A DNA stretch of 62,295 bases, the filler included, from Globobulimina sp. (lineage: Eukaryota), in NCBI GenBank assembly GCA_003354225.1. It is 10 parts of 10 records of this genome, joined end to end, with 100 filler letters (N's around TTAATTAATTAA, not from the genome) between each part and the next. Parts side by side here need not be neighbours in the genome. Positions count along the whole stretch, not along the records: positions 49,951 to 56,081 come from PIVH01000359.1; 9 more parts are not named here. One strand, given 5' to 3'. A model generated the notes under the pieces. The model made no database searches. It was not told the DNA's origin and worked only from the letters and a program-made list of their open reading frames with translations. The translations under genes and the position numbers were made by a program. Of the stretch, positions 54,266 through 56,081 are shown in pieces (within the stretch, counting starts at the first letter, position 1; every line of letters starts with the position of its first letter).

Positions 54266-56081
54266 TCATACATAAGCCTTTTCCACCTCAACATGTATAT
54301 CAATAATCTTATTCAAACCATTCGCAATAATTGTAATATCACCTCCCGCGTCAACTGCTTGTTTAATATTTTCAAATAGATCTTGTTGTTCATTTCCTAA
54401 AACCAATGTAAGATCCTCATAATTGCTATCCAAGCACACAACACTTCTCTTCCCTTCATCAAATGAATCAAATTCATATTTTCGAACCATTTTCATTGCA
54501 TCCTCTTTTTTTCTTTCTTGAATATATTGATATAACCGCTTACAAACTACTTTATTGTTATTCATATCTAATAACTGACACAATTGCTCCACATTCTCGC
54601 AATGATGAAACAGTTCACCGTCACATACATCCACTTTCTCCATTGCACCAATGAATTTATCCTTTAATTTCTGTGGGAATTTAGCTCCTTTATTTATTGA
54701 ATTCACCCAATTAATGCAATCATTAACATCCCAATCCATCATATTTCTATCAACTTTAACAATTTTCCTTTTAATACGTTTAGAATTCTTGACTTGATCC
54801 TTTGATGTTTGTTTTGTTAACAATACCCTTTGTATTCCATGCTTTTGATCCAATATCTCGCAAGAAAAGCTATTCGAGGACCAGCCACCAATACTTCTTG
54901 CAAATAATATTTCGCATTCATCCGGAAACTTGGAGAGCCAGGAAACGTCACAACAATATACATTCTTATCATTTTTAAACAGCTCATCAATTTCTAATAT
55001 CATTCCTTTCTTACCCATAAATTTTGTTGCTACATGTTCTTGCCACGAGGTGCTGACATAGGTAATAAAATATCTGTCCTTCACCAATTTGTCCGGCAAA
55101 TACACGTTATTTAAACCCGCATATACCTTAATATTATCATCAATCAATAACAATTATTTTAAACAGATATATTATACAAAGGTAGAGGCAGATACGCATA
55201 TTAATATTGACAATATATGGAATGCAACAATTTTAAGATATATTTATAAAAACCATACCTTAAACTGACCAAATTCTTTTTGACTCAACGCATATATGGC
55301 CCAATACAAACAATAATCAAACCATTTCCATTTTTTATAATTGCCACTGCGATGTTGATATCCTATGTCGACGCAACATTTCTCGCTGCCTGTCATCAAT
55401 ACCAACGCCAACATTTGTCCTTTGGTCAAAGGCTTCCCCATTAAAACATGTCGTTTTGATTTCATCTTTCTTTTCACAATTTTTTCAACGATATATTTTC
55501 CATTTGCAGTCGGCCATAAATCATCTTCAAATCCATTACATTTCACTTCATTCATTAACTGATCATAAAACCCAGCTCCATCCTCGCGTCGTTTTAGTGC
55601 CGCAAACTCTTCCTCTGTCGGTATATATAATGGGCGATTTTCATATTTATTTGAGCTCATAATAAATTCTTTCATACTCGATCCCTTTTCCTCCTGTTTG
55701 ACATAGGTAGGAGGATGCCTATATAACGCCATATGACATTTATAATCAGTACGTATTTGACCACGTTCTGTCTCTTTGAATGCCTGACAATTTTGTTTAT
55801 GCGGACACAGCGGTTTATCACTAAATTCATCTTGAAAATGTGTCTCATCCTCAATATGCACCAAATACTCTTCATCAAATGCTTTATGTTCAATCATGTC
55901 GCGATAAATAGGACATATCATCGGATCTAATTTCTCCTCTTTCCCTTCTTTCTCATCATCATTGAGCATATATTCGCATGTGATGCACGACTGTATTGTA
56001 TGATGATAAACACCAGTAACTACCAAATATAATCCTTTGTTTTGTATAACATCCACGTTAAATGTATTCATTTTTATGTTC
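54266..56081 (-). CDS. PBZ-like Zn finger + ART-like domain + SAM + eIF5A-C-like domain; intron 55127-55258; 5' truncated
   Basis: Spliced FK|VYAGL...YVSTS...GMILE...DVSWLSKFPDECEILF; SAM-like WDVNDCINWV...DGELF. Confidence 0.75.

Follow-up and report, generated by a model that had tools for sequence, protein, structure and literature searches.

A spliced, most likely foraminiferal gene with an ADP-ribosyltransferase fold, a variant active site, Cys/His zinc units and a conserved tail of possible eIF5A likeness

A stretch of 62,295 nucleotides from Globobulimina sp. (assembly GCA_003354225.1), hereafter the window, carries at positions 54266-56081 of its minus strand an ADP-ribosyltransferase (ART) domain, Cys/His motifs and an unusual C-terminal tail. 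The locus raises the question of whether these parts belong to a single gene, and what kind of enzyme such a gene would encode. An initial annotation had described it as an ART writer fused to a PBZ-like reader, a SAM-like segment and a module similar to the C-terminal domain of eIF5A. The motif strings that it quoted were all present in the minus-strand translation, RKYEFDSFDEG...DLFENIKQAVDAGGDITI being found at the C-terminus of exon 2. We lean somewhat towards the view that the locus consists of the last two coding exons of one ART gene with a variant active site, zinc units and a tail which is possibly derived from eIF5A. Foraminifera are major marine protists in which, to our knowledge, functional genetics is almost absent, and full-text literature searches revealed no description of this protein family or of its architecture.

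The coding sequence consists of two open reading frames (ORFs), and all features of the gene described below lie on the minus strand. Exon 1 (55259..56081, 274 codons, product P0002) was translated up to the contig end, where its 5' end is open and the spacer to the next contig starts from 56082. Exon 2 (54269..55126, 286 codons, product P0001) is the last coding exon; its translation contains the C-terminal half of the ART domain, a helical segment and the C-terminal module, and its ORF ends at the stop codon TGA (54266..54268) read from the sequence. The exons are separated by an intron of 132 nucleotides (nt) at 55127..55258, with GT..AG borders and in phase 0, exactly as the initial annotation had placed it. 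In contigs from all four sequencing runs compared, which come from at least three studies, position 55126 is joined directly to 55259 and exactly 132 bases are skipped. One run's contig matches the window across the joint with 0 mismatches, and in three of the four runs the depth was 0 in the bin 55145-55207. Splice support was judged by which bases the contigs bridge, and labels for the kind of run were not used, as these were unrecorded or guessed. A 2809-nt contig from a related organism contains both exons and continues for about 810 nt past 56081 and for 251 nt past the 3' end. In the partial lists of differences, 13 of 19 (X6) and 15 of 24 (X3) were synonymous, which is compatible with coding constraint, the lists being too partial to weigh.

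The foraminiferal transcript protein P0154 (855 amino acids, aa) is continuous over the junction (..QKECGRFK joined to VYSGLNNV..), and exon 2 is 69% identical to its residues 568-855 from end to end. When P0154 was compared with the window by tblastn, a single locus was matched by residues 271-855. A second foraminiferal transcript protein, P0003 (546 aa), is 52% identical to exon 1. The homology of exon 1 to P0003 and P0154 begins at residue 271 of both, and P0154 has 270 residues more upstream. The spliced contigs, together with the continuity of P0154 over the junction, show that this is one gene and not two, and its 5' part of about 270 codons is missing through the contig end at 56081. 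The reading frame stays open up to the contig end, so that the Met at 56069-56071 does not mark the start of the gene. The gene is spliced and eukaryotic, and most likely foraminiferal. The stop-containing gap of 132 nt between the two ORFs would by itself also suit two separate genes lying side by side, one for a zinc-finger protein and one for an ART/SAM protein. That gap, however, splits the ART domain itself, the contigs of all four runs are spliced and the orthologous protein reads through, so we give this arrangement practically no credence, and the fusion proposed earlier stands as a single gene.

P0003 leaves the ART frame after '...DGRY' (window 55259-55500) and continues in another frame. 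In the window the corresponding alternative frame contains stops, yet it encodes nearly the same peptide. P0003 reflects either a frameshift in the transcript or faulty assembly in its data set; P0154, from the same cluster, is intact.

Judged from the orthologue P0154, the order of domains is an N-terminal region, a ubiquitin-like beta-grasp domain, two CCHH units, the ART domain, a basic helical segment and an acidic module. A PH domain, which occurs in only 11 of 71 paralogues, was considered for the N-terminus of P0154 and rejected: there was no Pfam match at E<=1, hhalign gave P 0.009 over 23 columns, and the predicted local distance difference test score (pLDDT) of the model was below 50.

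The intron divides the ART domain into an N-terminal helical part (55259..55684, with an approximate boundary) and a C-terminal beta core (54809..55126). When the exons were scanned singly, exon 2 matched Pfam ADPrib_exo_Tox with 19.9 bits (cut-off 23.4) and exon 1 had no match. Scores below the Pfam cut-off are to be expected here, as the intron splits the domain and the exons were scanned unjoined. Full-length P0154 scored 22.3 bits against PF01129 (ART), equal to the cut-off of 22.3, and Pfam ART was matched at E<=1 by 41 of 71 relatives; here and below, conservation is counted over 71 family members, the longer relatives. Neither exon product had a meaningful match when searched by sequence against PDB, and a match to ribosomal protein L9 (E 0.048) was discarded, as it lay over a low-complexity linker. 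The structural model has the ART fold, a split beta-sandwich with an N-terminal helical lobe. Foldseek returned 34 PDB matches at E<=1e-3, with R-S-E ARTs throughout the matches listed and ExoS as the best (9.9e-7). As modelled, the domain is of the R-S-E clade and structurally closest to the vertebrate ecto-ART ART2.2.

The similarity to the vertebrate ecto-ADP-ribosyltransferases (ARTC; rat ART2.2, PDB 1gxy; PF01129) is one of fold, as sequence identity is only about 18%. In the window gene the domain is embedded in a long protein of several domains, among them the zinc units and a ubiquitin-like domain, whereas the ecto-ARTs are small and secreted or glycosylphosphatidylinositol-anchored. 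Compared to the bacterial R-S-E ART toxins and effectors (ExoS/ExoT, HopU1, XopAI, the Tre1-type toxin 6dre/6drh, C3, C2-I and Certhrax), the gene is eukaryotic, contains an intron and is represented by an endogenous transcript, and the protein has neither secretion or toxin-delivery parts nor the catalytic Arg.

In the textbook view, the Arg of R-S-EXE is essential for the R-S-E enzyme clade. The active site of the window protein is instead made up as Ala-(STS)-(ECE). Its positions were fixed by aligning the family profile to ART2.2 and ExoT, in which the family vYsG falls on VYRG of rat ART2.2, the STS on that of ExoT and the E-C-E on EQE of ExoT. At the Arg position (55118..55120) the window has Ala, in V-Y-A-G, and among the 71 members Ser is found in 44, Thr in 18, Cys in four, Ala in two, and Val and Ile in one each, while Arg is found in none (0/71). 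The ecto-ARTs have Arg here. The other two elements are kept: the S-T-S motif (55046..55054) lies in Y-V-S-T-S-W, with the first Ser present in 67/71, and the E-C-E motif (54911..54919) lies in P-D-E-C-E-I-L, with the two Glu present in 69/71 and 68/71. Upstream of the lost Arg position, by 33 residues, there is a near-invariant Gln-Arg pair (Q243 and R244 of P0002, 55349..55354; Q in 64/71, R in 65/71), which may be a candidate substitute for the catalytic Arg.

The strict conservation of STS and EXE argues for a working enzyme that uses nicotinamide adenine dinucleotide (NAD), and catalysis of this kind has probably been retained. According to PMC2576468, R-S-EXE is the active-site signature of arginine-specific ARTs, and ART3 and ART4 of mammals, in which this signature is altered, appear to be inactive. 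This weighs against a working enzyme, as does the circumstance that a replacement of the lost Arg by the Gln-Arg pair is a guess. It is therefore to be considered whether the protein is a pseudoenzyme, whose ART fold would have survived as a scaffold to bind NAD, ADP-ribose or a protein after the transfer was lost with the catalytic Arg. The absence of the Arg from 71 of 71 members, with Ala in the window, and the reported inactivity of ART3 and ART4 would agree with this. On the other hand, STS and both Glu of EXE are maintained in 67-69 of the 71 members of a large and diverged family, which is hard to explain without catalysis, and a near-invariant Arg lies close upstream. We regard a pseudoenzyme as rather unlikely. 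Of the 'ART writer' in the initial annotation, the ART domain is thus confirmed, but its role as a writer is uncertain. If the family is active, the definition of the R-S-E active site changes; if it is inactive, it would be among the largest pseudo-ART expansions known.

The window protein is one member of a large family, which comprises at least 219 clusters at 50% identity: with exon 2 as the query, a full HMMER search gave 219 cluster representatives at E<=1e-3, nearly all of which match residues 1 to about 105 only. Of 20 representatives that were looked up, 15 came from two foraminiferal transcriptome sets. The paralogues differ in their end domains, among which are PH, ubiquitin with HINT, RING with an RZ finger, SPRY, RGS, PUB and SAM. 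P0138, for example, combines a second ART with ubiquitin and HINT/intein-like pieces, P0063 carries a RING together with an RZ-type finger, and in P0094 a true SAM domain is located upstream of the ART. Such free swapping of end domains fits one catalytic core that has been retargeted many times. The family appears as one of intracellular ART-fold proteins, with a core like that of the vertebrate ecto-ARTs, zinc units and swappable end domains, and all members examined are without the R-S-EXE Arg and have kept the rest of the site.

On the preceding contig, an ORF of 762 aa (47618-49906, plus strand) runs into the contig end and contains FYHGL...STTT...ENERLF, which by eye is ART-like. It was rejected as a member of the ART family, having no Pfam match, no PDB match and no tblastn link to the family.

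Upstream of the ART domain, exon 1 encodes two Cys/His units. The first (C35, C56, H75 and H81 of P0002; 55838..55978) has its ligands in 63-64/71 members. The second, which the initial annotation called PBZ-like, reads K89...C92-x5-C98-x17-H116-x5-H122-P-P in P0002 (55709..55816); it is 78% identical to the orthologue, and its four ligands C92, C98, H116 and H122 are present in 64-65/71 members, the remainder being mostly gaps, a degree of conservation that exceeds chance. The string KPLCPHKQNC...HMALYRHP quoted earlier is present in exon 1 (P0002 residues 89-123), but the spacer from the second Cys to the first His is 17 and not 16. The two units resemble each other (hhalign P 2e-4), both having the form C-x17/18-H-x3-[Y/F]-x-H. 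This resemblance speaks for an internal duplication, with the long spacer being native rather than an insertion.

A fuller model had been built in the initial annotation on these units and on the tail: the PBZ finger binds ADP-ribose, the SAM domain polymerises and an OB domain derived from eIF5A aims the enzyme at the ribosome or RNA, or acts as an integrated decoy. Its first part has some basis in the Cys/His motif. The PBZ consensus given in PMC9404506 is [K/R]xxCx[F/Y]GxxCxbbxxxxHxxx[F/Y]xH, and the family consensus of the second unit, KPxC[KR]YGxxCK[AS][FY]xR...CHxKLYRHPPR, fits its lettered positions: as in PBZ proteins (APLF, CHFR; PF10283, zf-CCHH) there is a Cys2-His2 set with K-x-x-C-x-[Y]-G-x-x-C and H-x3-[Y/F]-x-H, and the units stand in tandem, as they do in APLF. 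Moreover, zf-CCHH is the sole Pfam zinc-finger family that touches the second unit, in 4/71 relatives, with a best E of 0.0041 (17.5 bits). The spacing does not fit, with 17-18 residues from Cys to His in both duplicated units against 6-7 in PBZ, and the window itself has His and Lys in place of the [F/Y] and Gly of PBZ. All of the zf-CCHH matches were below the threshold (cut-off 22.7 bits), that of P0056 covered the first nine profile positions only, and neither the window protein nor the isolated motif was matched at E<=10. Likewise, no PBZ protein appeared at E<=10 in the PDB profile search. The predicted model has two short helices in each CCHH unit at pLDDT 87-98, whereas PBZ lacks secondary structure according to the same source (PMC9404506). 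We therefore regard the CCHH units as zinc-binding units in their own right, which resemble PBZ in motif alone. Of the PBZ-like label, the Cys/His ligands and the letters of the family consensus held up, but the spacing and the profile matches did not. Binding of ADP-ribose by the units is possible but unsupported. The ligand itself presents a further difficulty for the fuller model. PBZ reads poly-ADP-ribose, and this would not be made by a mono-ART of the Arg type.

The ART domain is followed by a tail of 167 residues which, among 155 proteins in a local search, is present in P0001 and P0154 only. Word-index searches with P0154 residues 680-855 and P0001 residues 120-286 gave no further copies, and a metagenome scan with the module alignment produced 168 pattern matches, of which none was a relative. 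The first part of the tail is a basic helical segment of about 95 aa (P0001 residues 118-212, 54491..54775), with four helices in a low-confidence model, an isoelectric point (pI) of 8.6 and 65% identity between the window and P0154. With SAM domains (PF00536/PF07647) the segment shares its helical nature, a similar length (about 70-90 aa in SAM) and a W-x-v-x-x-x-x-x-W start, and when a model with a mean pLDDT of 47 was searched by Foldseek, a Ste50 SAM came at rank 3 (E 2.1). The fuller model could draw on this start and on this rank. However, SAM profiles gave no match at E<=10 for exon 2 or for a 154-aa tail, nor at E<=1 for P0154, and hhalign against two true SAM domains gave P 0.054 over 21 columns, covering the opening W..v..W helix only. 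A SAM identity of the segment is thus neither shown nor excluded, and the earlier 'SAM-like' label is a matter of interpretation rather than of observation, as the segment is helical but fits no SAM profile.

A true SAM domain is found elsewhere in the window, at the C-terminus of an anoctamin/PHM7-type membrane protein (6946-9954, plus strand; SAM_2 E 1.4e-10), which was used as a SAM reference.

The tail ends in an acidic module of 74 aa (P0001 residues 213-286, 54269..54490) that is 60% identical to that of the orthologue and has a pI of 4.3. The a/eIF5A C-terminal OB domain is described in PMC9599864 as a barrel of five strands, the third and fourth of which are separated by a helix. The hydrophobic pattern of the module suggests beta-beta-beta-alpha-beta-beta, the same order as in the a/eIF5A C-domain, and its pI is close to the median of 4.46 of those domains; the length of about 70 aa is also alike. 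As a reference, a/eIF5A sequences were collected from metagenome contigs by the hypusine-site motif, the 120 loci giving 75 usable ORFs and 73 distinct C-domains. In hhalign the module matched the 73 C-domains with a score of 21.0 and P 9.5e-4 over 62 collinear columns. With the 12 eukaryote-like C-domains P was 5.9e-4 over 35 columns, and with the 61 non-eukaryote-like C-domains the score was 23.9 and P 2e-4 over 62 columns; the hhalign probabilities for these sets were 22-47%. Column shuffles never reached the real score of the module in either set (0/300). Among random real segments of 80 residues, 0/480 reached the single-sequence score of the window (21.7) and 2/480 that of the orthologue (18.3). 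As a negative control, the N-domain of the same a/eIF5A proteins gave P 0.31 against the module. The module profile also scored eIF5A C-domains above decoys, with an area under the curve of 0.857 and 15 of the top 25 places, and 45 of the 73 C-domains scored higher forward than reversed. When a profile of the two module sequences was searched against PDB, the best natural match was eIF5A (7n4d_A, E 0.14, over the last 44 residues).

Several observations weigh against this likeness. Pfam eIF-5a (PF01287) was not matched at E<=10 by the module of either orthologue, and NCBIfam gave no match. With a HMMER profile of the 73 C-domains, the window protein came only second among 813 decoys (E 0.5). 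Composition accounts for much of the margin by which the C-domains outscore decoys, their reversed and shuffled versions doing nearly as well (medians 1.10 forward, 0.30 reversed and -0.30 shuffled), and the null pool of real segments was dominated by one protein family. In the PDB search, 7n4d_A was outranked by four designed helical-repeat proteins which match the same helix, and the N-terminal half of the module gave 0 matches in PDB. No likeness to EF-P domain II emerged (P 0.23; domains I-III, 0.23-0.64), whereas true eIF5A C-domains reach P 1e-6 with EF-P domain II on the same hhalign scale. Models of the tail were of a confidence too low to decide the fold, with a mean pLDDT of 47 for the tail alone and 30-63 for the module in the full model; in the latter, made for P0154, the module is predicted with strands E793-797 and E803-807, helix H812-825 and strands E831-835 and E838-842. 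Fold searches with the low-confidence tail models (Foldseek, VIA-align) gave no usable match. The tail profile is thin because only two sequences carry the tail. Finally, the module is not joined to a hypusine-bearing N-domain, unlike the C-domain in eIF5A/aIF5A.

A rival explanation sees in the module a small domain specific to the lineage and of no relation to eIF5A, which resembles the OB domain through its acidic composition and a common strand-helix-strand pattern. The silence of Pfam and HMMER, the composition control that takes away most of the signal, the failure to match EF-P domain II and the PDB result, in which four designed helical repeats did better on the same helix than eIF5A at E 0.14, would all be expected under this explanation. 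So would the behaviour of DUF6849, which was matched in Pfam by the window module at E 0.025; the match was not reproduced in the orthologue and was treated as chance. What it leaves to be explained are the collinear, whole-domain hhalign matches with three subsets of a/eIF5A C-domains (P 2e-4 to 1e-3), the scores that no shuffle and at most 2/480 real segments reached, the flat N-domain control and the excess of forward over reversed scores. We place an unrelated origin of the module a little short of an even chance. The module is most likely a small beta-barrel, as judged from its predicted pattern. The profile comparisons, collinear over 61-70 columns, together with the PDB match at E 0.14, lend weak support to a likeness to eIF5A that would be real and specific, at twilight level, and for descent of the module from the eIF5A C-terminal OB domain the chances are about even. 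The check that had been proposed for the last ~75 aa, a profile comparison with eIF-5a, thus gave a divided answer, with hhalign similarity to a/eIF5A C-domains but no match to the Pfam family.

Taken as a whole, the fuller model of the initial annotation, with PBZ reading, SAM polymerisation and aiming by an OB domain, is distinctly improbable in our view. It shares the eIF5A evidence with our own reading, that of an ART gene with a variant active site, zinc units and a possibly eIF5A-derived tail. Beyond the points on PBZ and SAM already given, it is disfavoured by the acidic module, which is an unlikely binder of RNA.

If the preferred reading holds, the protein would be an intracellular mono-ADP-ribosyltransferase with arginine as the probable target, arginine-directed transfer being expected because of the EXE signature. 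The near-invariant upstream Gln-Arg would stand in for the lost catalytic Arg, and its location and target would be chosen by the zinc units and the tail, acting as targeting parts. In the orthologue pair the tail would add the helical segment and a small acidic barrel for binding of a partner; given the acidic charge of the module, a protein is the more plausible partner, and direct binding of RNA is less so. Should the barrel derive from eIF5A, it could dock the enzyme on partners of the eIF5A C-domain or on the ribosome, and a translation-factor domain would then have been reused as a targeting module. A more specific version is that a foraminiferal ART captured the eIF5A OB domain for docking at the ribosomal E-site region or at eIF5A partners, and controls translation by arginine ADP-ribosylation, the Arg of beta-1 having moved to the upstream Gln-Arg. 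We consider that version improbable. Two points deserve further attention, namely that the catalytic Arg has been lost throughout the family and that the terminal module may derive from eIF5A.

The surroundings of the gene have to be read with the make-up of the window in mind. The 62-kb window does not represent a single chromosome piece but contigs of about 6.2 kb strung together, with nine N...TTAATTAATTAA...N spacers between the contigs (at 6204, 12456, 18704, 24944, 31184, 37423, 43661, 49895 and 56126). The contigs are mixed, some being eukaryote-like and others bacterial or from phage, so that adjacency across a spacer is uninformative on linkage. Eukaryote-like genes on other contigs include a kinase, the anoctamin-like protein with the SAM domain, phosphatases and a non-long-terminal-repeat retrotransposon, whose long ORF (38922-43262, plus strand) contains an endonuclease, a reverse transcriptase and RNase H. 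One contig, with a G+C content of 45-50%, is phage or prophage and encodes a P22-like portal protein (19367-21571, minus strand; Pfam E 6e-138). On the contig that follows the ART gene, a DUF1254 gene (56183-57277, minus strand) has 50 relatives in bacterial genomes at 44-83% identity, many of them in marine or sediment metagenome-assembled genomes (Bacteroidales, Desulfobacterota and others). This gene is from an associated bacterium and separate from the ART gene. On the same contig as the ART gene and adjoining it there is a sulfatase (52303-54006, minus strand; Pfam Sulfatase and SGSH_C), which is divided into two ORFs with a few bases and a frame change between them, resembling a short intron.

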